Source: an uncultured Nitrososphaerota archaeon (GTDB lineage Archaea > Korarchaeota > Korarchaeia > Korarchaeales > Korarchaeaceae). Taken from it: a stretch of 16,578 nt of DNA. Positions 1,329 through 14,834 of this stretch are shown here, one piece after another; the stretch's first letter is position 1; the number at the start of each line of letters is the position of its first letter. The position numbers and the translations under genes were made by a program. The DNA is taken from positions 1 through 16,578 of the forward strand of contig CAZUBM010000032.1 of assembly GCA_964618805.1 (NCBI GenBank), in the 5' to 3' direction. The notes beneath the pieces were generated by a model. That model searched no databases. It was given only the letters and a program-made list of their open reading frames with translations, and was not told where the DNA came from.

Positions 1329-3224
1329 CTACATCTTTTCCAGCCTAGGAATCCCTAAAACATCCATAGCATTGCCCAATGCGATTGAAATCGCCTTTAC
1401 CAGAGCAACCCTAGCCTCTCTAATTCCCTTAGGAGCAGCAATCACTGGACACCTCTCATAGAACTTATTTATCAATATGGCAAAATCGTTTGCGTATTGT
1501 GCTAGTATATCAGGACGCATCAACCAATAACAGCTTCTTATAGTCTCAGGTAGCTCAGCAATCTTATAGACAAGCTCTATCTCAATATCATCTTTCAAAA
1601 AGGAGGCATCAAACTCTTCTGCGACATTTCCTGCTCTCCTTAAAATCCCCCTCATCCTAGTGTACGCATATTGAATGAAGGGACCACTGTTCTCCTGAAG
1701 ATTCAGAACTCTTTCCCATGTGAAGATAACCTTCTTGTTAGGCACAACATTTATCAGAGCATATCTTATGGCTCCAACAGCAACCTTCTCAGCTATTTCC
1801 TCAATCTCCTTCTCCTGTACACCAGATCTCTCCTTCAAGAGATCTTTAACCCTTTTCTTTGCTTCATCCAAGAGCTCGTCAATTGTTATATATCTCCCTC
1901 TTCTTCCGCTCATTCTGATTTCTGGGAGATCCACAAACTCATAGCTGAAGTGCACCAAATTCGACGGATCGATTCCCATTAGAGCCACAGTAGCTCTAAG
2001 TTGAAGCTGAGGTAGCTTTTGGTCAACCCCTATCACGTTGTAGACTTTGTCCATCTTTAACCCTTCAAACTTGTAGAGGGAGTAACCAACATCCGTCCCT
2101 GTGTAAAGCCAAGTCCCATCGGATCTGCTAAGATAGTAGACTGGAGGCATCTTGGTCTTTATCTCTTCAAGGTCCCCTCCTAAGATTTCCCTTATGTCTT
2201 CTCTCTCCTCTGCAGCCTTAAGCAAGTTCACGCAATATGCTCCATCCTCGCTCTCAAGATACCCCGTCTTTTTCACCTTCTCCAGGGCTCTGTCAATCCA
2301 TCCTCCCCAAATAAGCTCACTTTCCCAATCGTAAGCGTCATGTCTTATTCCTAGCCTATCTAAGGTCTGCCTGAACCCCTCCATCACAGCCTCAGTGACT
2401 TCGCGAAACATGGCTTTCACGACCTCATCCTTTCCCTCTTGATACCTCCTGTTGAGTTCCGCAACTGATGCTTCTGGATCTTCATCCTTGTTTATTTCCT
2501 CTTCTAACTTGTTTATTAATTGGGGAGCCTTTTTTCTGAGTTCTTCGAGGGCTTCTTTCCACTCATCAGCCTCCTTACCTTCTCTCTTCTTGAGTTCGAT
2601 TATACAGTTGCAAGCTGCGTAAATGATACCGTACCAGTGGTCTGGCTTCCCCTCAACCTTAGCATTTGGAAGCTTTGACCTAGCATAGACAAGAAGAGAG
2701 ACTTGCCTGCCGCTATCATTAACTAAATAATGCCTTGAAACCTCAAAACCTAGTTTCTCAAGGATGTTAGCAAAGGCGTCTCCGATTACTGCATTCCTGC
2801 CGCTTCCAATGTGAAGTGGGTGAACTGGATTTGCACTTGTGTGTTCAACCATTACTTTGCCTTTTCCAATCTTTGAAGAGCCAAAATTAGTCTCAAGCTG
2901 AATTGCTGCTCTTATTACAGCCTCAGCAAAGCTCTTTTTGTTAAGCCCCAGGTTGACGAAACCTTCAACAGCTTGAGATGAAATCGCGTAGGGAATCGAT
3001 GAGATCTTAAGGGAGCTTGATAGTCGATTGGCTATCTCGCTCGGGGACTTCCTAAGGGCCTTAGCAAGTTCGAATGCTACTGGCGACCCAAGATCCCCAA
3101 GTTTCTTGTCTGGAACCCTTGAAATCGTTATCTTTGTTTTGATCGAATAGAAATCCATTATCAAGTCTGACAGGCTCTGGGCAAAGGCTTTCTTAACTTC
3201 TCCGAGGGGATCCATGGCTTTCAC
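1329..3224 (-). CDS. argS: Arginine--tRNA ligase
   Basis: VEHTSANPVHPLHIGSGRN (HIGH region), RSDGTWLY, MSGRRG (KMSKS equivalent) and GPFIQYAYTR...DALR anticodon domain; 631 aa. Start is GTG 3224 or ATG 3215. Confidence 0.98.
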   Translation of the reverse strand: MKAMDPLGEVKKAFAQSLSDLIMDFYSIKTKITISRVPDKKLGDLGSPVAFELAKALRKSPSEIANRLSSSLKISSIPYAISSQAVEGFVNLGLNKKSFAEAVIRAAIQLETNFGSSKIGKGKVMVEHTSANPVHPLHIGSGRNAVIGDAFANILEKLGFEVSRHYLVNDSGRQVSLLVYARSKLPNAKVEGKPDHWYGIIYAACNCIIELKKREGKEADEWKEALEELRKKAPQLINKLEEEINKDEDPEASVAELNRRYQEGKDEVVKAMFREVTEAVMEGFRQTLDRLGIRHDAYDWESELIWGGWIDRALEKVKKTGYLESEDGAYCVNLLKAAEEREDIREILGGDLEEIKTKMPPVYYLSRSDGTWLYTGTDVGYSLYKFEGLKMDKVYNVIGVDQKLPQLQLRATVALMGIDPSNLVHFSYEFVDLPEIRMSGRRGRYITIDELLDEAKKRVKDLLKERSGVQEKEIEEIAEKVAVGAIRYALINVVPNKKVIFTWERVLNLQENSGPFIQYAYTRMRGILRRAGNVAEEFDASFLKDDIEIELVYKIAELPETIRSCYWLMRPDILAQYANDFAILINKFYERCPVIAAPKGIREARVALVKAISIALGNAMDVLGIPRLEKM

Positions 3225-3364: not shown

Positions 3365-4228
3365 CCCTTCCTTAGATGATAGGTATCATGCCGAGAGCAT
3401 TGGCAAACCAGTGCCAGAGGGCTGAAGGAGCGATTCTTTTAGTCATGTGAAAGAGGTAATCTCAGAGAACTTCTAGGCTCAAAGTAGAAGTTAAATAGCA
3501 AGCTCATAATTATGAAAAAAGTCCAGAAACCCTTTGAACTCCATCTAAAATATCCTTCTATCCTATTTTGGATTAATCCATTCCAAGCCACGTTTTGAAA
3601 CATATCCGTAGCATGAAAAAGCATAAATGGAAGCAAGGATTTTAGAGGAATTCCTAGAGTTTGCGGTTCAGGCGGAGTAGTTATCAGCTTTGAAATTAGG
3701 AAATTGAGAGCGTCAATTACTGTAATTCCAATTATAGCAGTAGAGAATGCTCATATGATGTCCAAGCGTAGCGAGCATCTATTCCTAAAGCCTAGACTGG
3801 TCCAGCCCTCCTTTTTCCAAATTATATCATATGCTGTTGAAAGGAAAAACATAGGTCCACCTCCTCATCAAAGAGAGGATCCATTCAGGATCGCCTATCC
3901 TTGGAAGCACGATCGCTGCGAGTCCGGTTCCAGGAAACATCAGAACTAGTAACGGAAGAAGGTCCAGGACGCCCCTTCTGGAGTACTCCTTTTCTAACAA
4001 AGGGAATTCCAATTCTCCAAGAATCAATCTTATGAGCAAAAGAGAAAAAATAAGCACAATAAAGCTTAGAATGAGATTATTTGATGTGAGATTTCTATAT
4101 AAACGACCCTCAACTATCCTTAACCTTGAAATGTAAACTATAAGGAAAGTTATTGTTATTAAACTCAGAATGATTTCCAATTCGGTTGATTCTCTGGATC
4201 TAGAGGATCTAGATCACTGGTCATATCC
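3365..4228. repeat. Direct repeat copy A (pairs with 11584-12497)
   Basis: 3376-3458 and 3502-3948 are identical by eye to 11595-11677 and 11771-12217. 3941-4200 has about 45 mismatches in 260 nt by manual count. Confidence 0.97.
3372..4210 (-). pseudogene. CPBP (CAAX protease/Abi)-like membrane protein, copy 1, disrupted
   Basis: Joins ORFs 3827..4180 and 3439..3636. Lesions: frameshift near 3864, in-frame TGA 3751-3753, a net 50-bp deletion near 3459-3461 relative to copy 2, and loss of the copy-2 ATG. Motifs KEGWTSLGFR and KRIAPSALWHWFAN. Confidence 0.8.
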
Positions 4229-4374
4229 TTTACTTGGATTTTTTATCTTAAAAACCTCTCACATGGATTAGAACAGACTGACTATATCTATTCTCCTTGT
4301 AATGAGACACTTGATATGGGCCCAAGGGGGAAGGCCTCAGCCTTTGTTGTGCGGAGTGAACGAACTTGCACGAC

Positions 4375-4406
4375 TTAAATAATTGATATATATGTATATA
4401 CATATA
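4375..4406 (+). promoter_or_regulatory. vapBC promoter: TATA-like box plus 18-bp palindromic operator
   Basis: TTAAATAA at 4375-4382; perfect palindrome TATATGTAT-ATACATATA at 4389-4406 abutting ATG 4407. Confidence 0.7.
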
Positions 4407-4649
4407 ATGGCTAGAAACATAATGGTGTCCGACGAGGTTTATGAGGAGCTGAAGAGGCTAAAGGGACCAGAAGAGAGCTTTAGCGATGTCATCAAGAAAT
4501 TGCTAGCTTCTAGAAGAGGTAGTCTACTTGATATGGCTGGATCGGGTACCATAACCGAAGAAGGTGCGAAACTCCTTGAGAGATATAAGAAAGCAATGGC
4601 ACTAGCTGACTCCGAAAGATTGAGAAAGTTATTGGAAGGAGGGCAGTGA
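4407..4649 (+). CDS. vapB: VapB-family antitoxin (archaeal DUF217/UPF0330 type)
   Basis: MARNIMVSDEVYEELKRLKGPEESFSDVIKKLL is the typical signature. 80 aa from ATG 4407 (TTG 4383 is unlikely). Its stop overlaps the start of the PIN gene. Confidence 0.92.
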   Translation: MARNIMVSDEVYEELKRLKGPEESFSDVIKKLLASRRGSLLDMAGSGTITEEGAKLLERYKKAMALADSERLRKLLEGGQ

Positions 4650-5056
4650 TGTACCTACTTGACACCAGCTTCCTCATAGACCTAGTCAGAGGGAAACCAG
4701 GCGCTGTAGAACTTGCTAAGAGAATAGAAGAAGAGAGAGCTTATGTGGCTATCTCTGTTGTCACATTCCATGAATATCTGCTCGGGGTATACCTTTCATA
4801 TAAAGATGAAAATAAGCGAAAAGAAATGTTAGTTAGGGCTGAGTTGGAGTTGTCTCGATTTGATGTTCTGCCTTTTACTGCTGACATAGCTAGAAGAACG
4901 GCTGGAATAATGGCCTCTTTAATTAAGGAAGGAGAACCTCTTGGGCTGGGAGACGTGATAATAGCGGTCACTGCTATAGAACGTCGCCTTTCTCTAATCA
5001 CCAGGGACGTTAAACACTTCTCTAAAATCCCAGGGCTTGAAATTCAAAGCTATTAG
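4646..5056 (+). CDS. vapC: VapC PIN-domain ribonuclease toxin
   Basis: YLLDTSFLID, TFHE, GDVIIAVTA and LITRDVKHF supply the PIN acidic residues. Translationally coupled by GTGATG (start 4646 or 4649). Confidence 0.95.
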   Translation: MMYLLDTSFLIDLVRGKPGAVELAKRIEEERAYVAISVVTFHEYLLGVYLSYKDENKRKEMLVRAELELSRFDVLPFTADIARRTAGIMASLIKEGEPLGLGDVIIAVTAIERRLSLITRDVKHFSKIPGLEIQSY

Positions 5057-5501: not shown

Positions 5502-5528
5502 ACTAATAAAGAAGCAATCTTTATTAGT
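5502..5528. promoter_or_regulatory. 11-bp perfect inverted repeat overlapping the putative TATA box of the 5550 gene
   Basis: ACTAATAAAGA-agcaa-TCTTTATTAGT; TTTATTA at 5520-5526 lies ~24-30 nt before ATG 5550. Confidence 0.55.
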
Positions 5529-5549: not shown

Positions 5550-6203
5550 ATGGAGAGGGTAGACAGGGAGCGTGAAGTAAAGGAGAAGCTAGACAAGCTT
5601 GAGGATCTCAGGAGATCGGGACAGATCTCCGAAGAAACTTATAGAAAGATGAAATCCGAGCTGCAAGAGAGGCTTAAGAGAATTAAGGCTTTGAAGAAGG
5701 AGGAGAAGGCAAAACGAAGACGAAGGCTTCCAAAGAGAGAGGTAACAAGAAAGGAGAAAATAGGACTGAAGGTTCCTAAGAGAATGCCTTTCTTTGGAAG
5801 GAAAGGCCCGGGATTAGCTTATCTCAGTACTGGGGTGATCTTAGGGTTCCTAACGCTCCTTCTATCCTCCTACTTCAGACCAGACCTGATGTCATCGCTC
5901 ACAGGACTTATTGCTCTTCCTTTGTCAGCTGGTTTCATTGGCTGCCTGCCAGGAAGGCTTGCAGGAGGTGGAGTAAGAGAAGCTGGCTACTCTGCCTTTG
6001 GCCTTGTCCTACTGTTCTCTTTGGCTGCTTCGGCCTCGGTTTCGCTTTATCCAACAGATTGGGTTACAGCTCTCTCCTCTTCGCTTCTTAAGTCAGAGGC
6101 CGTAAACGATCCCATAAGGCTTGGATGCTCCTCATTTCTATGTCTGCTTGCTCCATCTTTTGTCGGAGCTTACTTCGCATCCAAATTGATTCCAAGGAGG
6201 TGA
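5550..6203 (+). CDS. Membrane protein with N-terminal SHOCT-like domain, basic linker and ~4 TM helices
   Basis: LDKLEDLRRSGQISEETYRKMKSEL, then a K/R-rich linker, then four hydrophobic segments. Confidence 0.8.
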   Translation: MERVDREREVKEKLDKLEDLRRSGQISEETYRKMKSELQERLKRIKALKKEEKAKRRRRLPKREVTRKEKIGLKVPKRMPFFGRKGPGLAYLSTGVILGFLTLLLSSYFRPDLMSSLTGLIALPLSAGFIGCLPGRLAGGGVREAGYSAFGLVLLFSLAASASVSLYPTDWVTALSSSLLKSEAVNDPIRLGCSSFLCLLAPSFVGAYFASKLIPRR

Positions 6204-6556
6204 GTGCCCTGAGCCTGATAGACCTGCTGATAAGAGGCGTCGTCTTAACTAGGTTATTGATGGACAAGCTGATGATGAAGGAAACGCTAGCGATTCACGT
6301 CTCCTTGGACTTTGGTCTTGCTACCCTAGGCTTAGTAGGCCTGCTCTACATCACGAACTTGAGGAAAAGGGCTGGATTCTGGCTGGGTGTCTTTGGTTTA
6401 GGGGCAACTAGCCTCGTCATGAGAAGCAAGATAGCTGGAGGGCTTCTTTCTCTCCTCTTCCTAAAGAAGTTCTGGAAAATATTCCTACTGTTGCTGGTCT
6501 CTCTGTTCTTGATATATCAGGGCCTAGGGGATCTTGCGCTGAGCGCCCTCACATAA
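6200..6556 (+). CDS. Small hypothetical polytopic membrane protein
   Basis: Almost entirely hydrophobic and coupled to the upstream gene. Start is GTG 6200 (GTGA overlap) or CTG 6209 after GGAGGTGA; ATG 6125 would overlap the upstream gene by 79 nt. Confidence 0.7.
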   Translation: MSALSLIDLLIRGVVLTRLLMDKLMMKETLAIHVSLDFGLATLGLVGLLYITNLRKRAGFWLGVFGLGATSLVMRSKIAGGLLSLLFLKKFWKIFLLLLVSLFLIYQGLGDLALSALT

Positions 6557-6591
6557 AATCTTCTCCATGTTGAGTGGGTCTCAAGCTAATA

Positions 6592-6975
6592 TTATCCAGC
6601 CCTTAGTTTTTCCTTTTCTCTCTCTAGTTCTTCCATCTCTTTCACTAATGACTTCAGTTCTGCGTCTGTTGCCTCATATTCACCTGATTTTATCAGTTCA
6701 TAGACCCTCTTTCCTATCCTTTCTGCAACCTTGTCCATTTTTGACTCTATAAGCTTTACTTCGGCCTTTGATTTTGCGGTCTCAAACACTTCCTTGATCT
6801 TCTCCACGACGCCCTCCTCTTCTCCTTTCTTTTTTGAAACAATCGTTCTAGCTTTTTTCTCTTTCTTGCCCTCCATTTCATACTTGGCTCTCAGTTCTTT
6901 GTATGTTTCCTCACTTATCCTCCCTTCTAAAAGAGCCTCCTCAAGCTTCCTCAACTTCTCCTCTCTGTCGCTCAG
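6592..6975 (-). CDS. Soluble coiled-coil protein with N-terminal SHOCT-like domain
   Basis: EEKLRKLEEALLEGRISEETYKELRAKYE plus a helical C-terminus (ERIGKRVYEL...KEMEELEREKEKL). A G-rich RBS suggests a CTG start at 6975; the ORF track uses GTG 7008. Confidence 0.8.
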   Translation of the reverse strand: MSDREEKLRKLEEALLEGRISEETYKELRAKYEMEGKKEKKARTIVSKKKGEEEGVVEKIKEVFETAKSKAEVKLIESKMDKVAERIGKRVYELIKSGEYEATDAELKSLVKEMEELEREKEKLRAG

Positions 6976-7301
6976 GATCCCATCCCCCCTCCCCTTATTT
7001 GAATGCACTTGCCTGACTTGTCCTTTATCTTTAGAAACTGATAAGTCTTACCCCCTGTGTTTCTGACGGACCTAGATTCGGGTTTATATGCCGATAAGTT
7101 TGTCTAAACCTCTGGGCCTCCGTAAGTATAAAGTTTTTATCGGGGCAGGAATGTAAGTCGGCAGAATTACATCTTTGTAATTGGAGCGTGCTTATGTTGC
7201 GGGGATACAGCAAATAAACTCCATCGGAAAAGGAGAAGTGCTAAGTTGAGATATCACCCATAAGGTTAAAAAGAAATCATGTAGCTTTCATCAAGGGTGT
7301 T

Positions 7302-8198
7302 TTGTTGGCCGAAACTAGGGAGGAGGTGAATAAAAAACTTGAAAAACTAGAGAAACTGTATAGATCAGGGAAGATAAGCGAAGATCTCTACAAGGAACTC
7401 AAAGAAAAGTACCTTTCAGAACTTAAATCCAAAGCACCAAGTCCTATCGAGACTCCTCCGAGGCATCGGCTTAGTAAAAAGATCCTTCCTTTGGCTCTTC
7501 TGTTGGTAATTTTAGCGGCTGGAGTTTTTTACTTCGTTAGATCTGGTGTTCCCCAATCCCATGGTGGAGCCTTTCCAAGCCCCTCTCCAGGTCCTGGTTC
7601 CCCTTCGACGCCCAAGCCCTCTTCAACTCAGCCCCCTCAGAGCGGAAAAGCTGTCACGTTTGAGGAGGCCATGGAAATGATGAGTTCAGAGGCATTCAAA
7701 TGGTGCCAAAACTGTTATCCTATCTCGGCTTGGCTACCCCCTCATCCGAGGGCAATTAGTTTCGGTGGAATTGCTCGTGAATGGCATGCAAAGTTTTACT
7801 GTCCAAGCAAAGGGAAAGTAGCTTGGTTCTACTATGTTAATGGAAAGGTTGAAAGAATGGAGCTGGTGGGAAAGAAAGAGTGGGATTGGGACGCTGATTT
7901 CACTCCAGAAGCATTCTCAAAGTCATTACCTGCGATTGAAGTTTATTCAATAGCTTTAGCTGCTGGAGGAAACGAATTTATACTGAACCATCCGGAAAAG
8001 GAGGTCTATCTGAGCATGATAATTGAGAGCAGGGAGGTAGCCAGATGGTATGGGACCCTCTTGCCAGAGGAATACGAGAAGACGAAAGCTCAAAGCATTT
8101 GGAGGGTGGCTTTTCAGATACCCGCCGGAGACGAGTTTTTCGTTTTTATAGATCCCACGACTGGCCATGTTCTCTTCACTAAGACAGCCCATCACTAA
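7302..8198 (+). CDS. Single-pass membrane protein: SHOCT-like N-terminus, TM helix, Pro/Ser linker, external domain
   Basis: KKLEKLEKLYRSGKISEDLYKELKEKY; TM ILPLALLLVILAAGVFYFV; linker PSPSPGPGSPSTPKPSSTQPP; the C-terminal WRVAF...VFIDPTTGHVL is PepSY-like. Confidence 0.82.
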   Translation: MLAETREEVNKKLEKLEKLYRSGKISEDLYKELKEKYLSELKSKAPSPIETPPRHRLSKKILPLALLLVILAAGVFYFVRSGVPQSHGGAFPSPSPGPGSPSTPKPSSTQPPQSGKAVTFEEAMEMMSSEAFKWCQNCYPISAWLPPHPRAISFGGIAREWHAKFYCPSKGKVAWFYYVNGKVERMELVGKKEWDWDADFTPEAFSKSLPAIEVYSIALAAGGNEFILNHPEKEVYLSMIIESREVARWYGTLLPEEYEKTKAQSIWRVAFQIPAGDEFFVFIDPTTGHVLFTKTAHH

Positions 8199-8351: not shown

Positions 8352-8598
8352 ATGGCAAGGAACATATTGGTGTCAGACGAGGTTTACGAAGAGCTTAAGA
8401 GGTTAAAGGGACAAGGATAGAGTTTTAATGATGTCATTAAGGAACTCTTAAGATCTAGGAGTGAAATCTGCTTAGTCTGGCAGGGTCTAGAACTATAACC
8501 GAACTGAGGGAGGCGCCAGGCTGCCTTGAGAGTACAAGGGGTTGGGTTCTCTAGCGGATTTAGGAAGGGTAAGGAAGCCGCTGGAAGGGAGCATTTAG
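8352..8598 (+). pseudogene. vapB: Second, degenerate vapB copy without vapC
   Basis: MARNILVSDEVYEELKRLKGQG*SFNDVIKELLRSR / NLLSLAGSRTITE / GARLP*EYK...LADLGRVRKPLEG aligns end to end with 4407..4649; two stops and two frameshifts. Confidence 0.92.
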
Positions 8599-8667: not shown

Positions 8668-9042
8668 AATTACCTTCCCTGATTGGTCTAATAATTCGCC
8701 ATAGGCTTACTTCCCTAAAGAAGCAAGAGAGATGATTTAAGGTAAAAAAGAGAGAGCGCGCTTAAGCCTTAGGTTAACAAAACCGCCTTTTGCCTCGAAA
8801 GAGAGAGCATAAGGGATTGAAGAAAAGTCTAAAGAGCTGGAAATTTGGCTGGCTATCTTATTTGGAGCCTTTTTCAGGATCTTGGCAAGCTTAAAGGCCA
8901 CAGGAGAACCAAAATCCCCTATCTCAAGATTTGGAGTCCTTGATACACTCAACTCTACTTTTGTAGAGTAGAGGCTACTACAGACTTCGAGCAGGGACGA
9001 GGTAAAGACCCTCTTAATCTCTTGGAGGGAGTCTTGAAGCAT
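8668..9042 (-). pseudogene. argS: Truncated argS paralog (N-terminal additional domain only)
   Basis: SRTPNLEIGDFGSPVAFKLAKILKKAPNKIA...SSIPYA...GFVNL versus ArgS SRVPDKKLGDLGSPVAFELAKALRKSPSEIA...SSIPYA...GFVNL. Weak similarity continues past two stops to GKVI at ~8668. Confidence 0.88.
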
Positions 9043-9564: not shown

Positions 9565-11598
9565 ATGATGCCTGGTACTAGGTATCCTTACACAAAGAAA
9601 GTAAACGTAGTTGAGGTTATTCATGGCGTAGAGATCCAAGATCCCTTTCGATGGCTAGAAGACTTAGATAGTACGGAAGTAAGAAAATGGATTAAGGAGC
9701 AAAATGCCCTGACAATTTCTCTCCTAAACACACTTCCCTGGAGAAAGGAGATACAGGAGGAGCTAATGAGAATATATCAGTCGAAGGTCATTCTATTACC
9801 CGTAATCTGCAAGGAGAGATATTTCTTTTTCACCAGACAGGGTGGACAAAGACATGCCGTTTTGAACATGTCAAAGGGTAAGTTTGACCCAGAGAAGGCG
9901 AGAATTATCTTAGATCCAAATACCTTCAGTGAGGACGGAACGGTAGCTTTAGACTGGTATTACCCTTCCCTAGACGGGAGTTACATTGCTTACGGAAAGT
10001 CCGAAAAAGGGAGCGAAAGAAGTGTTTTACACATACTCAACGTGGATTCAGGAGAGCACTTGCCCGAGACCATACCAAACACTCAGTGGTCTACAGTTGC
10101 TTGGTTAGAGGACTGCTCTGGGTTCTATTACACTTGGAACTCCGACAATGAAAGATATATCCCCAGAGTTCGCTTTCACGAGCTAGGCAGCGATCCCAAG
10201 GAAGACCCATTGATATTTGGGGAAGGTCTACCAGAGGGAATATGGCCAAGCATTTATCCCTCATCCGACGGAAGATACCTCTTCTTGGCAGTAGATGAGG
10301 GGTGGATTAGAAATGACCTTTATGTGGAGGATCTGCGGGAGGATGGTGAGTTTATACCAATTGCTGTGGGGAAAGAAGGAAAGTTCTTTGCAGATGCTAT
10401 TGAAGGCTCGCTAATCATTCAGACGAACTACAAGGCACCAAGGTATCGCATCCTGAAAACATACTTGGATGATCCTAGAGAGGAGAATTGGAGAGAGATA
10501 ATACCTGAAGGGGAAGGGGTGATAAAGAGGTTTCAGATAATAGGAAGGAAGTTAGTTATATCTCTGAAGGAGAATACATATTACAGACTGCTTGTTTATA
10601 CCTTAGAAGGTGAATTCCTGTACGAGATCAAGCTTCCTTCAATTGGCAAGGTTGATTTTACTGGAAGATGGGACAAAGACGAAATGTTCTACATGTTCTC
10701 ATCCTTTGTCTATCCTCCTGCATTATTCAGGTATGACTTAAGCGATCGAAAACAGGAGAAGATCTTTCAGCAAGATGTGAAAATTAGCCCATCTGAATAC
10801 GATACAAAGCTCATTTTCTACAAATCGAAGGATGGGACAAAGGTTCCAATGTATATAATCCATAAAAAGAACGTTAAGCTCAACGGCAACAACCCAACAA
10901 TTTTGAGCGGATACGGTGGGTTTGCATTGGGTAGAGAACCAGCTTTTCTTAAGAGCTTCATTCCATGGCTGTCGAGGGGAGGAGTGTATGCCGTTGCTTG
11001 TATAAGGGGGGGAGACGAATTCGGGGAGGAATGGCACAAGACAGGAATGAGGGATAAAAAACAAAATGTATTCGATGATTTCATAGCAGCTGCCGAGTGG
11101 CTAATCGAAAATAGCTACACAAACCCTAGTAAGCTGGCAGTATGGGGAGCCAGCAATGGAGGACTTTTGGTAGGAGCTGTCCTTACCCAAAGGCCAGATC
11201 TGTTTAAAGCTGTGGTATGCAAGGTTCCGCTACTTGACATGATCCGCTATCACAAGTTCCTGGTTGCTGGCCTTTGGGTCTCAGAATACGGCTCGCCTGA
11301 AGACCCGGAGGAGTTTAAGTGGCTTATCAGCTACTCTCCTTACCACCACGTTGTTGAGGGTCGGACATATCCTGCAGTCTTCTTTAGAGCAGCGGAATCT
11401 GATGGAAGGGTTCACCCTATGCATGCCATGAAAATGGCAGCTAAGATGCAAACATACGGAAAAGGAGGGCCATTTCTCCTTTATGTCGAACCAAAAGCAG
11501 GACATGGCGCGGGTAAACCTTTAGACATGTTCGTTAAAGGAGAAGCTGACTGTCTAGCATTTGTTGTATGGCAGTTGAATCTTCCCTTCCTCAAATGA
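9565..11598 (+). CDS. Prolyl oligopeptidase (peptidase S9A)
   Basis: DPFRWLED N-terminus, GYGGF, RGGDEFGEEWH, catalytic GASNGG, Asp in SDGRV and His in AGHG; 677 aa, no signal peptide. Confidence 0.97.
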   Translation: MMPGTRYPYTKKVNVVEVIHGVEIQDPFRWLEDLDSTEVRKWIKEQNALTISLLNTLPWRKEIQEELMRIYQSKVILLPVICKERYFFFTRQGGQRHAVLNMSKGKFDPEKARIILDPNTFSEDGTVALDWYYPSLDGSYIAYGKSEKGSERSVLHILNVDSGEHLPETIPNTQWSTVAWLEDCSGFYYTWNSDNERYIPRVRFHELGSDPKEDPLIFGEGLPEGIWPSIYPSSDGRYLFLAVDEGWIRNDLYVEDLREDGEFIPIAVGKEGKFFADAIEGSLIIQTNYKAPRYRILKTYLDDPREENWREIIPEGEGVIKRFQIIGRKLVISLKENTYYRLLVYTLEGEFLYEIKLPSIGKVDFTGRWDKDEMFYMFSSFVYPPALFRYDLSDRKQEKIFQQDVKISPSEYDTKLIFYKSKDGTKVPMYIIHKKNVKLNGNNPTILSGYGGFALGREPAFLKSFIPWLSRGGVYAVACIRGGDEFGEEWHKTGMRDKKQNVFDDFIAAAEWLIENSYTNPSKLAVWGASNGGLLVGAVLTQRPDLFKAVVCKVPLLDMIRYHKFLVAGLWVSEYGSPEDPEEFKWLISYSPYHHVVEGRTYPAVFFRAAESDGRVHPMHAMKMAAKMQTYGKGGPFLLYVEPKAGHGAGKPLDMFVKGEADCLAFVVWQLNLPFLK

Positions 11599-12497
11599 TA
11601 GGTATCATGCCGAGAGCATTGGCAAACCAGTGCCAGAGGGCTGAAGGAGCGATTCTTTTAGTCATGTGAAAGAGGTAGCAATTAATTAGTAATCCAAGAG
11701 TGCTTCCAGGTGCATATCTAATGAAATCTATCAGAGAACTTCTAGGCTCGAAGTAGAAGTTAAATAGCATGCTCATAATTATGAAAAAAGTCCAGAAACC
11801 CTTTGAACTCCATCTAAAATATCCTTCTATCCTATTTTGGATTAATCCATTCCAAGCCACGTTTTGAAACATATCCGTAGCATGAAAAAGCATAAATGGA
11901 AGCAAGGATTTTAGAGGAATTCCTAGAGTTTGCGGTTCAGGCGGAGTAGTTATCAGCTTTGAAATTAGGAAATTGAGAGCGTCAATTACTGTAATTCCAA
12001 TTATAGCAGTAGAGAATGCTCATATGATGTCCAAGCGTAGCGAGCATCTATTCCTAAAGCCTAGACTGGTCCAGCCCTCCTTTTTCCAAATTATATCATA
12101 TGCTGTTGAAAGGAAAAACATAGGTCCACCTCCTCATCAAAGAGAGGATCCATTCAGGATCGCCTATCCTTGGAAGCACGATCGCTGCGAGTCCGGTTCC
12201 AGGAAACATCAGAACTACTAAGATGAAGAGATCCAGGATATCCCCACTAGAGTACTCTCTTTCCAGTAAAGGGACCTCTAACTCCCTAAGAATCAATCTT
12301 AGGAGTGAAAGAGAAAAAATAAGCACCACAAAGCTTAGAATGGGATTATTTGAAGGGAGATGTCTGTATAAACGACCCTCAACTATCCTTAACCTTGAGA
12401 TGTAAACTATGAGAAAAGTTATTGTTATTAGAATCAGTATAATTTGCAATTCGGTTGATCCTCTGGATTTAGGCATGGAATCACTCTGGTCATATCC
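11584..12497. repeat. Direct repeat copy B (pairs with 3365-4228)
   Basis: Offset from copy A is 8219 nt before, and 8269 nt after, the 50-bp indel. Confidence 0.97.
11591..12476 (-). pseudogene. CPBP (CAAX protease/Abi)-like membrane protein, copy 2, disrupted
   Basis: ATG 12476 after GAGTGA; frameshift near 12133; TGA 12020-12022; the remaining frame runs to TGA 11591-11593, overlapping the end of the prolyl oligopeptidase gene convergently. Confidence 0.82.
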
Positions 12498-12555
12498 TCC
12501 TTTTGTTTGATTTTTATTTAATAACCTTCCTGTGTTTTAGGAAGAATGTAGATAA

Positions 12556-13296
12556 ATGGTAGGTCCTATGTCGAACTCAGGTTTTCAACCAAAGGAGAAA
12601 TTTGTAGAGTGGAAAATGGAAGTTCCTAGCAAGATTGAAGTAATTGGGGCTTTTTTGGTGTTACTTCCAGTCTCTTTTATGCTTGCTGGATCCAAAGACG
12701 TGCAATTTTTGTTCAAGGGCCCCTTTGATTATCTATGGTTTCTTGTACTCACTTTCATTGTAATATTGCTTCATGAAGGGGTTCACATAGTTGTAATCAA
12801 GGCTCTGGGTCTGGGATATCGTTTGGGGATTGGAGGCTATTATGTTTACGTCACCATAATAGGGGAGATAGACAGATGGAGGTTCTTCTTAATTGCGATC
12901 TCTCCCTTATCCATAAGCCTTCTTCCTTTTGTTTTTCCAAACTGGCCTATTTTGAGAATAATGTCTTTTCTGAACTTTTTAGGCTCTGTTGGTGATATTT
13001 TGATCCTTATGAAGCTTTTAGGGGTCGGAAAAGCTAAAATAGTGGACAGAGGAAGGTTTATAGTTGTCTTATCAGAAAAACCACCAAGAACCTCAATTTT
13101 AGTAAAGAACTTCTTCAGCTCATTCCCATTGTTTATGCTTGCTTCTCTTCTTATAACCCTCATGGTATTACTTAGGCTTGGAGGAGCTTTTGAGATCTCT
13201 CTAATTCCAGATCGTATTTACTTTCTAGCAGCGGACTTTTCAATGGTTTACGCCATCTTAACCCTCTTCTCAGCAAATCATGAAATGCATCTCTAA
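12556..13296 (+). CDS. DUF3267-type membrane zincin metalloprotease
   Basis: TM-embedded LLHEGVH, then IAISPL and NFLGSVGD motifs; multiple TM segments. Confidence 0.8.
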   Translation: MVGPMSNSGFQPKEKFVEWKMEVPSKIEVIGAFLVLLPVSFMLAGSKDVQFLFKGPFDYLWFLVLTFIVILLHEGVHIVVIKALGLGYRLGIGGYYVYVTIIGEIDRWRFFLIAISPLSISLLPFVFPNWPILRIMSFLNFLGSVGDILILMKLLGVGKAKIVDRGRFIVVLSEKPPRTSILVKNFFSSFPLFMLASLLITLMVLLRLGGAFEISLIPDRIYFLAADFSMVYAILTLFSANHEMHL

Positions 13297-13451
13297 TCTT
13301 CTGCAGTAATTTTCCATATCTCTGAGGTTATTAAGAGAAAGATTCGTTAAAAGCTATCATTGGACGATAAACGTCGATCAGAGAGATTCTGCTACACATC
13401 CAAACTTTATAGTAGTAAGAAATATAATGCATCATCTAGTAGGTGAGATTT

Positions 13452-14834
13452 TTGGCCAATAAGTTCGAAAGCTTGGAGAATTTCATTTTTAAGAAGATGT
13501 CTGAAACAAACCTCCCTGGTTTAAGCATAGCCGCTATTGAAGATGAGAATACGGTGTATATAAGGGGATTTGGCTTTAAAGATCTCTTAAGGGGATTGCC
13601 AGCAACCCCAGAAACTCTTTATTGCATAGGCAGTGTTACAAAGTCTTTTACATGCTTGGCTATCATGCAGCTTCAAGAGAAAGGGGCTCTAAGCATTGAG
13701 GATCCCATTGAAGAATATGTTCCGCTAAAGATTAGACCCAAGGGGGAACCTATAAGGATATGGCACTTAATGAGCCATACGAGTGGAATTCCAGCTCTAG
13801 CATATGCTGAGGCTGTTATCAGGCAAGCTACAAAGGCATCTAATGAATGGCTTCCTATATCAAGCTATCAAGATATGATCACGTTTATGGCTGAGGCTGA
13901 CAAATGGGTTCATTCAAAACCAGGGGAGAGATGGTTTTACCTTAATGAAGGCTACATTCTGCTTGGATACATTATAGAAAAAGTATCTGGGGAGAAGTAC
14001 GCTAATTATGTTAAGAAGCATATACTGGAGCCTTTAGGAATGAAAAGGAGTTACTTCCACAAGGAGGAGGTCGAGAGAGATCCTGATGTAGCGGTGCCGT
14101 ACATATTAACGAAGGATGGTGATAAAATAGCCAGCACATATCCTTATGGGGCCATATTAAGCGATGGTGGTCTGATAAGCAATGTCGTTGATATGATAAA
14201 ATATGTAAAAATGTTCATTGATTACGGCAAAACAGATGGAGCAAAGATAGCAAGTGAAGATTCCATTAGAGAAATGATGAAGCCTAGAATACGCCTACCT
14301 TACGAGCCTTTTATAAGCAAAGGCTTCAGATATTACGGATATGGACTTGGAATAAAGCCAGATTTCTTTGGTTATAACCTCATAGGTCATGGGGGAAGCG
14401 TTCTCGTATCGACCGCTTACATGGGATTCGTTCCAGAAAGAAGGATAGGGGTAGTGATACTTGCTAATGGAAGTGGCTATCCTTTGAGCTATATAGGAGA
14501 ATACGCTTTGGCCCTTATGCTGGGAAGGGATCCCAAGGAATTATCAATTATAAAATATGAGGAAATCTTAGATGAGCTTACGGGAATTTATGAGACCTAC
14601 AGAGGCACGATGAGGGTCACAGTGACCAAGAGAGGGAGCCTATTACAGATAGAGAGAAGAGACAGATACACAGAGTTTACGTTACCCTTAATACCTGCAG
14701 ACATAGACGGAGAGACAAAAGTATTTCACGCTATATCCATGGATATGAAGGTACCTGCTGAGTTTATTATGGAGAATGGGGATCTCTTCTTGATTTATGA
14801 GAGATACAAGTTGAAGAAAGTTGGAAAAATCTGA
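13452..14834 (+). CDS. Beta-lactamase-fold serine peptidase (S12), Pab87/CubicO-like
   Basis: SVTK, YLN and HGG motifs, LMSHTSG, and a C-terminal beta domain (LTGIYETYRG...LIYERYKL) like the Pab87 octamerisation domain. Probable TTG start at 13452 after GGTGA; the track starts at 13443. Confidence 0.92.
   Translation: MANKFESLENFIFKKMSETNLPGLSIAAIEDENTVYIRGFGFKDLLRGLPATPETLYCIGSVTKSFTCLAIMQLQEKGALSIEDPIEEYVPLKIRPKGEPIRIWHLMSHTSGIPALAYAEAVIRQATKASNEWLPISSYQDMITFMAEADKWVHSKPGERWFYLNEGYILLGYIIEKVSGEKYANYVKKHILEPLGMKRSYFHKEEVERDPDVAVPYILTKDGDKIASTYPYGAILSDGGLISNVVDMIKYVKMFIDYGKTDGAKIASEDSIREMMKPRIRLPYEPFISKGFRYYGYGLGIKPDFFGYNLIGHGGSVLVSTAYMGFVPERRIGVVILANGSGYPLSYIGEYALALMLGRDPKELSIIKYEEILDELTGIYETYRGTMRVTVTKRGSLLQIERRDRYTEFTLPLIPADIDGETKVFHAISMDMKVPAEFIMENGDLFLIYERYKLKKVGKI

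Follow-up and report, generated by a model that had tools for sequence, protein, structure and literature searches.

A rare, conserved gene cluster with a shared SHOCT/GvpG-like N-terminal tag: a candidate membrane-associated module in the Korarchaeaceae

Here we show that four neighbouring genes, named A, D, B and C in their order along a 16,578-nucleotide (nt) contig of an uncultured archaeon of the family Korarchaeaceae (assembly GCA_964618805.1, contig CAZUBM010000032.1), combine a sequence tag shared by three of their products, an overlapping gene structure, synteny across genera, purifying selection and rarity. The best-supported explanation of these sequences is that A, D and B, often with C-type surface proteins, form a conserved, rare and lineage-restricted membrane-associated module. 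The fuller reading, in which the tags would hold the members of this module together at the cytoplasmic face of the membrane, is one in which we place about even confidence; its main rival is that the tag acts as a general address label. The analysed stretch (hereafter the window) is an entire contig (C32) of a 2.18-Mb genome in 62 contigs (G000), and its DNA is present in hydrothermal-vent metagenomes; a search of sequencing runs found it in no RNA run. It was compared with related genomes, among them G001, a congener (G002) and a member of another genus (G015, locus L013), with two metagenome contigs (L017 and L018), and with two independent vent metagenome runs (X2 and X4).

Proteins A, B and C have in common an N-terminal motif of about 36 residues, here called the tag. 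The genes and the tags within them are given below; transmembrane (TM) segments were assigned by a Kyte-Doolittle scan and by direct reading.

5520-5526, plus strand: TTTATTA, a TATA-box-like motif read from the sequence, 24-30 nt upstream of the ATG of A.
5550-6203, plus strand: gene A, 217 amino acids (aa), with tag, Lys/Arg-rich linker and four TM segments; open reading frame (ORF) open.
5583-5663, plus strand: tag of A (aa 12-38), the stretch aligned by Pfam SHOCT.
6200-6556, plus strand: gene D, ~115-118 aa, a small glycine-rich multi-pass membrane protein, inside the ORF 6125-6556.
6592-6975/7008, minus strand: gene B, 127-138 aa, with tag and a conserved helical body of ~80 aa, no TM segment.
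6856-6972, minus strand: tag of B (tag profile match, 62.8 bits).
7302-8198, plus strand: gene C, 298 aa, with tag, one TM segment, Pro/Ser stalk and a 180-aa ectodomain; ORF open.
7311-7436, plus strand: tag of C (tag profile match, 57.3 bits).

An earlier note on this DNA had drawn attention to a motif common to A, B and C on otherwise different bodies, and both observations stand. The strict motif that it gave (KL.KLE.{5}G.ISE[ED].Y.{3}[KR]) matches five of 19,993 six-frame ORFs of at least 40 aa, three of which are these genes, and by hydropathy A has four TM segments, B lacks any and C has a single one, followed by a Pro/Ser stalk and an external domain. The segments of A fall at about aa 87-105, 115-133, 146-164 and 196-214 and are accompanied by the conserved loops GGGxREA and DPxRL. 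Within C, the TM segment (aa ~57-75) and the stalk (aa ~80-117) precede an ectodomain with two conserved cysteines and a PepSY-like C-terminus, which scores 20.2 bits against PepSY (PF03413) over aa 256-291, below the cut-off of 24 bits; a paralogue of C elsewhere in this genome (G000:C18), 31% identical over aa 123-291, passes that cut-off with 28.6 bits.

The fourth, small membrane gene had been described as coupled to the first, and the reading frames agree. D may start at GTG 6200, which overlaps the stop codon of A (TGA, 6201-6203) as GTGA, or at CTG 6209, which is aligned with the Met of the G015 orthologue and has AAGGAGG (6194-6200) 8 nt ahead of it. The two genes overlap in G015 too, by 10 nt, and D appears to be translationally coupled to A. 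B most likely starts, as had also been proposed, at CTG 6975: it is aligned to the Met of its orthologue in G015, and a closely related strain in run X2 lacks 1 nt farther upstream, at 6990, which argues against the alternative start at GTG 7008. The CTG starts of B and possibly D stand opposite ATG in the G015 orthologues. B and D are convergent, with 35 nt between their stop codons, and B and C are divergent. The TTTATTA motif before A would fit a leaderless archaeal transcript.

The co-location of these genes recurs in relatives. The order A, D and then opposite-strand B is found at all four loci that have D with flanking sequence (the window, L013 of G015, L017 and L018), and C adjoins these genes in G000 and G015, and also in a relative in run X4. 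The G015 locus has a G+C content of 66%, against about 43% in the window, and is surrounded by other genes (an XPB-like helicase, DUF72 and a large surface protein). Its order is C, C', A, D, opposite-strand B and a multi-tag/CdvA-like protein, which puts C on the other side of the triad; C' consists of a tag, a TM segment and a DUF3108-like ectodomain. In the vent metagenomes, a single contig of run X2 spans D-B-C, and B and C are linked, by an incomplete spacer, in a contig of the ~90%-identical relative in run X4. In G001 a 96%-identical A stands at the end of a contig and follows argS, as it does in the window.

Between G000 and G015, identity falls from 82% for D and 63% for B to 44% for A and 37% for C, with 50% for the arginyl-tRNA synthetase (ArgRS). 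A, D and B are under purifying selection, the ratio of non-synonymous to synonymous substitution rates being 0.08 for D (against G015), 0.09 for B (against L018), and for A 0.13 at its end (against L018) and 0.11 (against G001). The tags themselves are more alike between orthologues (48% for A-A, 70-86% for B-B) than between co-resident proteins (34-41% for A-B and A-C).

The module is rare. D was found in two genomes in a search of 41 relatives, in two genomes in a search of 36 of the family, and otherwise in two short metagenome contigs; it forms four clusters among 5.8 billion clustered proteins. An exhaustive HMMER search of 1.84 billion representatives with A gave four matches at E<=0.001, two of them full-length and two being repeat proteins reached via the tag only. 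A word-based search with the C ectodomain recovered itself and one 84%-identical protein, and profile-free genome searches added relatives of C, 31-37% identical, in G015, G001 and G002. D has no match in Pfam, NCBIfam, PADLOC or PHROGs, and in the last three libraries A, D, B, C, C' and the multi-tag protein likewise have no significant match (best PADLOC E=0.0021 for A, D, B and C). Searches of the sequences of solved structures (PDB) with a profile of B and a profile of the tag returned nothing below E=0.1, so that B is without a match in family libraries or solved structures beyond sub-threshold matches to its tag. A literature search on the SHOCT domain met no report of this cluster, though no search was aimed at the cluster itself. 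The bodies of A and D are near-orphans among these billions of proteins, and the bodies of the cluster are new orphan families; the tag is a known type of domain.

Among candidate relatives of the bodies, the ESM Atlas hits for A, to EIIC-GAT fragments, are at chance level (score 0.80). For B, ESM Atlas gave generic helical-hairpin look-alikes only, some with zinc ribbons (feature score 0.77); both sets serve as leads only. A match to D in a metagenome-assembled genome of Chloroflexia (L020) proved to lie in a TM part of a multi-pass protein of 428 aa, with glycosyltransferase-like genes next to it, and was judged spurious.

The identity of the tag was examined against Pfam models with cut-offs of 27 bits for SHOCT (PF09851), 30.6 for GvpG (PF05120) and 30 for the CdvA-like coiled coil (PF18822). 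As whole proteins, A reaches SHOCT at E=1.9e-4 (21.5 bits) and GvpG at E=3e-4, B reaches the SHOCT-like DUF1707 at E=0.038 and GvpG at E=0.11, and C reaches GvpG at E=0.0039; neither B nor C matches SHOCT, and none of the three matches the CdvA-like coil. The tag of A taken alone scores 26.7 bits with SHOCT and aligns to positions 29-66 of the GvpG model as well. When 29 tags from this genome and its relatives (alignment and profile A5) were scanned singly, 24 matched the C-terminal half of GvpG at E<=0.01, 13 matched SHOCT, six the CdvA-like coil and four DUF1707; 26.7 bits remained the best SHOCT score, and the GvpG matches, confined to positions ~28-66, scored 13-26 bits. The SHOCT-like character that had been proposed for the tag is thus borne out by weak, sub-threshold matches, and the remark that a similar hairpin occurs in the CdvA-like coil holds in so far as six of the 29 tags match that model weakly and the body of the multi-tag protein matches it below its cut-off. 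The consensus ..EKLRKLEEA..EG.ISEETY.ELK.KYE, in which L14, G21, I23 and Y28 are nearly invariant, has the pattern of two short helices joined at a glycine, with helix-favouring ..KL.KLE.. before it and ISEE.Y.ELK.KY after it, and would fit a two-helix hairpin; the best hit of the tag profile among solved structures, at E=0.22, is not significant. The tag is best named SHOCT/GvpG-C-terminal-like, A, B and C falling short of formal membership in PF09851.

The tag is not confined to this cluster. With a hidden Markov model of seven G000 tags, 12 ORFs score above the inclusion threshold, the seven seeds among them, and profile A5 gives 13 matches in 12 ORFs; in both searches the seeds match by construction. 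Eleven tagged proteins of G000 were examined: the tag is N-terminal in seven, at or near the C-terminus in three and repeated in one, and the bodies are unrelated, which is the terminal placement on many different architectures that characterises SHOCT. The six tagged membrane proteins of G000 carry it, at either terminus, on the flank of the TM segment that is rich in Lys and Arg, which suggests, by the positive-inside rule, a cytoplasmic location. Besides A, B and C, the tagged proteins include the following.

G000:C10 1784-6937 (L027), minus strand: a 1,718-aa surface protein with CARDB, PD40 and Ig-like domains, its tag being a cytoplasmic tail after a C-terminal TM segment.
G000:C24 9162-9860 (L021 4163-4864), with a counterpart in G015 (L013 11743-12399): a conserved multi-tag protein of ~220-240 aa, with two to four tags followed by a coiled coil.
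Other tagged bodies of this genome: a protein with six TM segments, one with two TM segments and a C-terminal tag, and three soluble proteins of 226-400 aa.

A frame of 1,761-1,806 aa with a tag match is also open at G015:C14. The multi-tag protein of this genome passes SHOCT as a whole protein (27.9 against 27 bits), and its coil is the sole match of this genome to the CdvA model (24.2 bits; 25.6 bits for that of G015; cut-off 30). Multi-tag proteins of ~225-280 aa with a CdvA-like coil recur in several related genera; the gene adjoins the cluster in G015 only and stands without a tagged neighbour in G000, G002, G004, G012 and G027.

Across relatives, profile A5 has matches in 32 of 41 genomes, with 13 each in G000 and G015, 4-8 in their genera and about one per genome in a sister genus. 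Tagged neighbours occur at G000:C11 (two), G015:C6 (five), G014:C67 (three) and G038:C53 (two), and elsewhere the tagged ORFs are dispersed. The pair at G000:C11 (7751-8950, minus strand, and 9583-10260, plus strand) is a second divergent one, with an ITE variant of the motif rather than ISE. The supposition of a code private to the three proteins fails on this distribution, the tag being present on 12 ORFs of this genome, most of them dispersed; it appears instead to be a lineage-expanded, promiscuous module. The clustering itself, on the other hand, exceeds what random placement gives: of 200,000 trials that scattered 11 tagged genes over the genome, 60 brought three or more starts together within 1.8 kb.

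The idea at the centre of the earlier note, that of a tag assembling unlike proteins at the membrane, is already a published hypothesis, though not for these proteins. Ravi et al. (2024) report SHOCT-like variants N- and C-terminal to many domains and predict that these variants tether unlike domains to the inner leaflet and contribute to the assembly of membrane-associated complexes (PMC11237479). The further premise that SHOCT is an oligomerisation module is not established: in the defining paper (Eberhardt et al. 2013), oligomerisation was proposed and a fusion protein was tested, and the experiments gave no support (PMC3581485).

Read together, these observations suggest a lineage-restricted assembly. 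A and D would be co-translated and most likely pair as an integral-membrane heteromer, and B would be a small cytoplasmic helical protein; C, and in G015 also C', would be single-pass surface proteins with a PepSY-type ectodomain that join the module in some genomes. By the positive-inside rule, the tags of A, B and C should all lie on the cytoplasmic side beside the membrane, where they would gather the three proteins at its inner face. They could do so by pairing with one another, which we infer as just one of the routes that this reading allows, or by way of a common target, either the lipid surface or the multi-tag coiled-coil protein. A single assembly would thereby unite an extracellular domain, a membrane core and a cytoplasmic helical protein. 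A structure prediction of A, D and B as a complex scored 0.00 against a mark of 0.32 and, having been run without controls, counts neither for nor against binding.

Several points weigh against this reading. A, B and C reach the SHOCT model only below its cut-off, and the only published SHOCT self-association test was negative (PMC3581485). The occurrence of D in two of 36 family genomes makes the module dispensable, and the full-length relatives that C has in G001 (C99) and G002 (C27) stand apart from any A, D or B. The 12 tagged ORFs of G000 have unrelated bodies and seven of them lack an adjoining tagged gene, so that the tag cannot be a code specific to this complex. Likeness between neighbouring tags can, moreover, stem from gene conversion, as between B and C' of G015 (131/132 nt).

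The main rival accepts a functional unit and makes of the tag a general label that addresses proteins to the membrane face, by way of a lipid or a multi-tag hub, with no pairing between the tags of A, B and C. We consider it possible, if rather unlikely. It draws on the promiscuity of the tag, which in G000 alone sits at either terminus of 12 ORFs, down to the tail of the 1,718-aa surface protein, on its presence in most related genomes, and on the multi-tag family with its CdvA-like coil, which occurs in several genera and directly beside the cluster in G015. Anchoring at the inner leaflet is, besides, a prediction made by Ravi et al. (PMC11237479), and the negative self-association result quoted above (PMC3581485) points the same way. 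However, A and C are already anchored by their TM segments, which would make a lipid anchor redundant for both, and the multi-tag gene lies beside the cluster in a single genome. Orthologous tags also keep their subtype (RSG in A and C, but LEG in B), a hint of specific as opposed to generic recognition.

A bolder reading would make the tag hairpin of this lineage the address system of a sub-membrane scaffold, with A-D-B-C as a dedicated client; we hold it to be improbable. The multi-tag protein, with its two to four tags and CdvA-like coil, would polymerise under the membrane and capture single-tag proteins, namely the tails of surface proteins, the A-D core and soluble helical adaptors such as B. 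If this were true, the cluster would couple an extracellular PepSY sensor to the scaffold.

A different explanation is that the shared tag and the clustering arose chiefly as side effects of local duplication, gene conversion and domain shuffling, within an accessory island prone to recombination, and that the genes need not act jointly. The region of the window is rearranged, as the features around the cluster indicate.

3365-4257 and 11584-12527: direct duplication of ~950 nt, 8.2 kb apart, 88% identical, with about 99% identity over the first 400 nt.
4383-5056, plus strand: vapB-vapC pair directly upstream, intact-looking (VAPB_antitox E=6e-16, PIN E=4e-20); context rather than part of the module.
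8352-8461, plus strand: VapB remnant, 79% identical in nucleotides to 4407-4516; downstream context.
8737-9042, minus strand: N-terminal ArgRS fragment of 101 aa (Arg_tRNA_synt_N E=2e-15), a diverged second copy.

The fragment has 51% aa identity to the resident ArgRS (1329-3224) and 60% to that of the congener G002, and contigs of run X2 break within it, at 8760/8765; together with the VapB remnant it looks like a scar of recombination with foreign DNA at argS. The description of four intact genes flanked by pseudogenes holds for the four ORFs, all of which are open, and for the downstream side; the vapBC pair upstream looks intact. The duplicated block occurs nowhere else in the genome, its first copy being shorter by about 50 nt, and on its minus strand it encodes a split CPBP/Rce1-like intramembrane protease, in two ORFs in the second copy.

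Exchange may also have touched the genes of the module. A is closer than the adjacent ArgRS to its G001 counterpart (96% against 83%) but farther from that of G015 (44% against 50%), which points to recent exchange among members of the genus. The tag sequences of B and C' in G015 agree at 131 of 132 nt (codons 2-44), after which similarity ends abruptly. The first 44 codons of the two genes form there a 131-nt exact inverted repeat (L013 9165-9296, plus strand, and 11444-11575, minus strand), with start codons TTG and ATG. This identity reflects a recent gene conversion between neighbouring tags; it shows one way in which the tag spreads, and means that neighbouring tags can be alike without shared function. 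The patchy distribution of D fits such an origin. Nonetheless, the tags of A, B and C in the window are only 34-41% identical and so have undergone no recent conversion, the order and orientation of A-D-B are kept across genera that differ in G+C content and in neighbouring genes, and all the genes are under purifying selection. Local recombination accounts for part of the likeness of the tags, but not for the conserved synteny, and as the principal explanation we think it improbable.

Less probable still is that the genes are cargo of a mobile or defence island, for instance an abortive-infection or toxin-like module that acts on membranes. Defence effectors often take the form of small multi-pass membrane proteins with helical partners, and the cluster, patchily distributed, does lie beside vapBC, gene remnants and duplications, but the window has no integrase, transposase or tRNA gene, PADLOC and PHROGs give nothing significant for A, D, B or C (best PADLOC E=0.0021), and vapBC is missing both at the corresponding position in G001 and from the G015 version of the locus.

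A classical integrative element was likewise not supported, no tRNA gene being present in the window and no integrase among its ORFs. Downstream of C, a prolyl oligopeptidase, a DUF3267 zincin-like protein and a beta-lactamase-fold protein with a Pab87 octamerisation domain follow in a row (9565-14834); these three peptidase-type genes are not kept beside the cluster in G015. A scan for sigma-70 promoters and intrinsic terminators, a method not applicable to archaea, gave fewer sites than shuffled sequence.

SHOCT-like modules are widespread, and the sole biochemical test in print was negative. Here three to five neighbouring genes carry them in an arrangement kept across genera, with one tag each on a protein with an extracellular domain, on a membrane core and on a soluble helical protein. 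The cluster is accordingly a compact natural test case for whether the hairpins pair with one another, bind a hub protein or bind lipid. An answer would help to understand a common, unexplained prokaryotic domain and the way in which some archaea link surface proteins to the cytoplasm. Since the module is rare and dispensable, its own physiological importance is probably local.

From a comparative standpoint, the tag is closest to SHOCT and its variants (DUF1707, SHOCT_2), with which it shares the build of a short two-helix module: a conserved glycine separates the helices, and the second of them is acidic and aromatic. Like them, it is found at the termini of unrelated bodies, often by TM segments and predicted to be cytoplasmic, and neighbouring genes are sometimes each tagged. 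SHOCT is named for a C-terminal position, whereas the tag is N-terminal in most of the G000 proteins examined (7/11); the SHOCT-defining paper does list N-terminal cases, namely CorA, Tic20 and a kinase (PMC3581485). The tag also differs in that A, B and C stay below the SHOCT cut-off and in that more tags match the C-terminal half of GvpG (24/29) than SHOCT (13/29). The bodies of A, with its partner D, and of B do not figure among the described partners of SHOCT, such as those named in these families (band-7, bPH, Toastrack, PspC and LiaI-LiaF-TM).

The likeness to GvpG extends over positions ~28-66 of the 67-position model. GvpG is itself reported to be a small protein that acts as an assembly factor and binds several protein partners during the assembly of a protein shell (PMC11445434). 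Unlike GvpG, the cluster has no gas-vesicle context around it; GvpA has no match in this genome either, a result that says little, the same control having been silent in all 14 reference genomes.

In architecture, the cluster is analogous to the PspA-PspB-PspC and Lia modules, which combine small integral membrane proteins with a peripheral helical cytoplasmic protein, and SHOCT-like domains are reported from the neighbourhoods of Psp/Lia-type systems (PMC11237479). The resemblance does not extend to the domains: PspA/IM30, PspC, LiaI-LiaF-TM, Toastrack and band-7 have no match in A, D, B or C (Pfam, E<=1), Psp/Lia domains were not found in the other ORFs of the window (Pfam, E<=0.001), and the Pfam scans put no PspA, band-7 or ESCRT gene in the cluster. 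In further contrast to Psp/Lia, the cluster contains no regulator. PspA is also longer than B (about 130 aa).

C, finally, departs from PepSY surface proteins in its sub-threshold score, an ectodomain longer than one PepSY unit, its two conserved cysteines and its cytoplasmic SHOCT-like tag. Like them, it is predicted to be single-pass and extracellular, and it ends in a strand pattern of the PepSY type, W.V.F ... V.ID..TG.VL.

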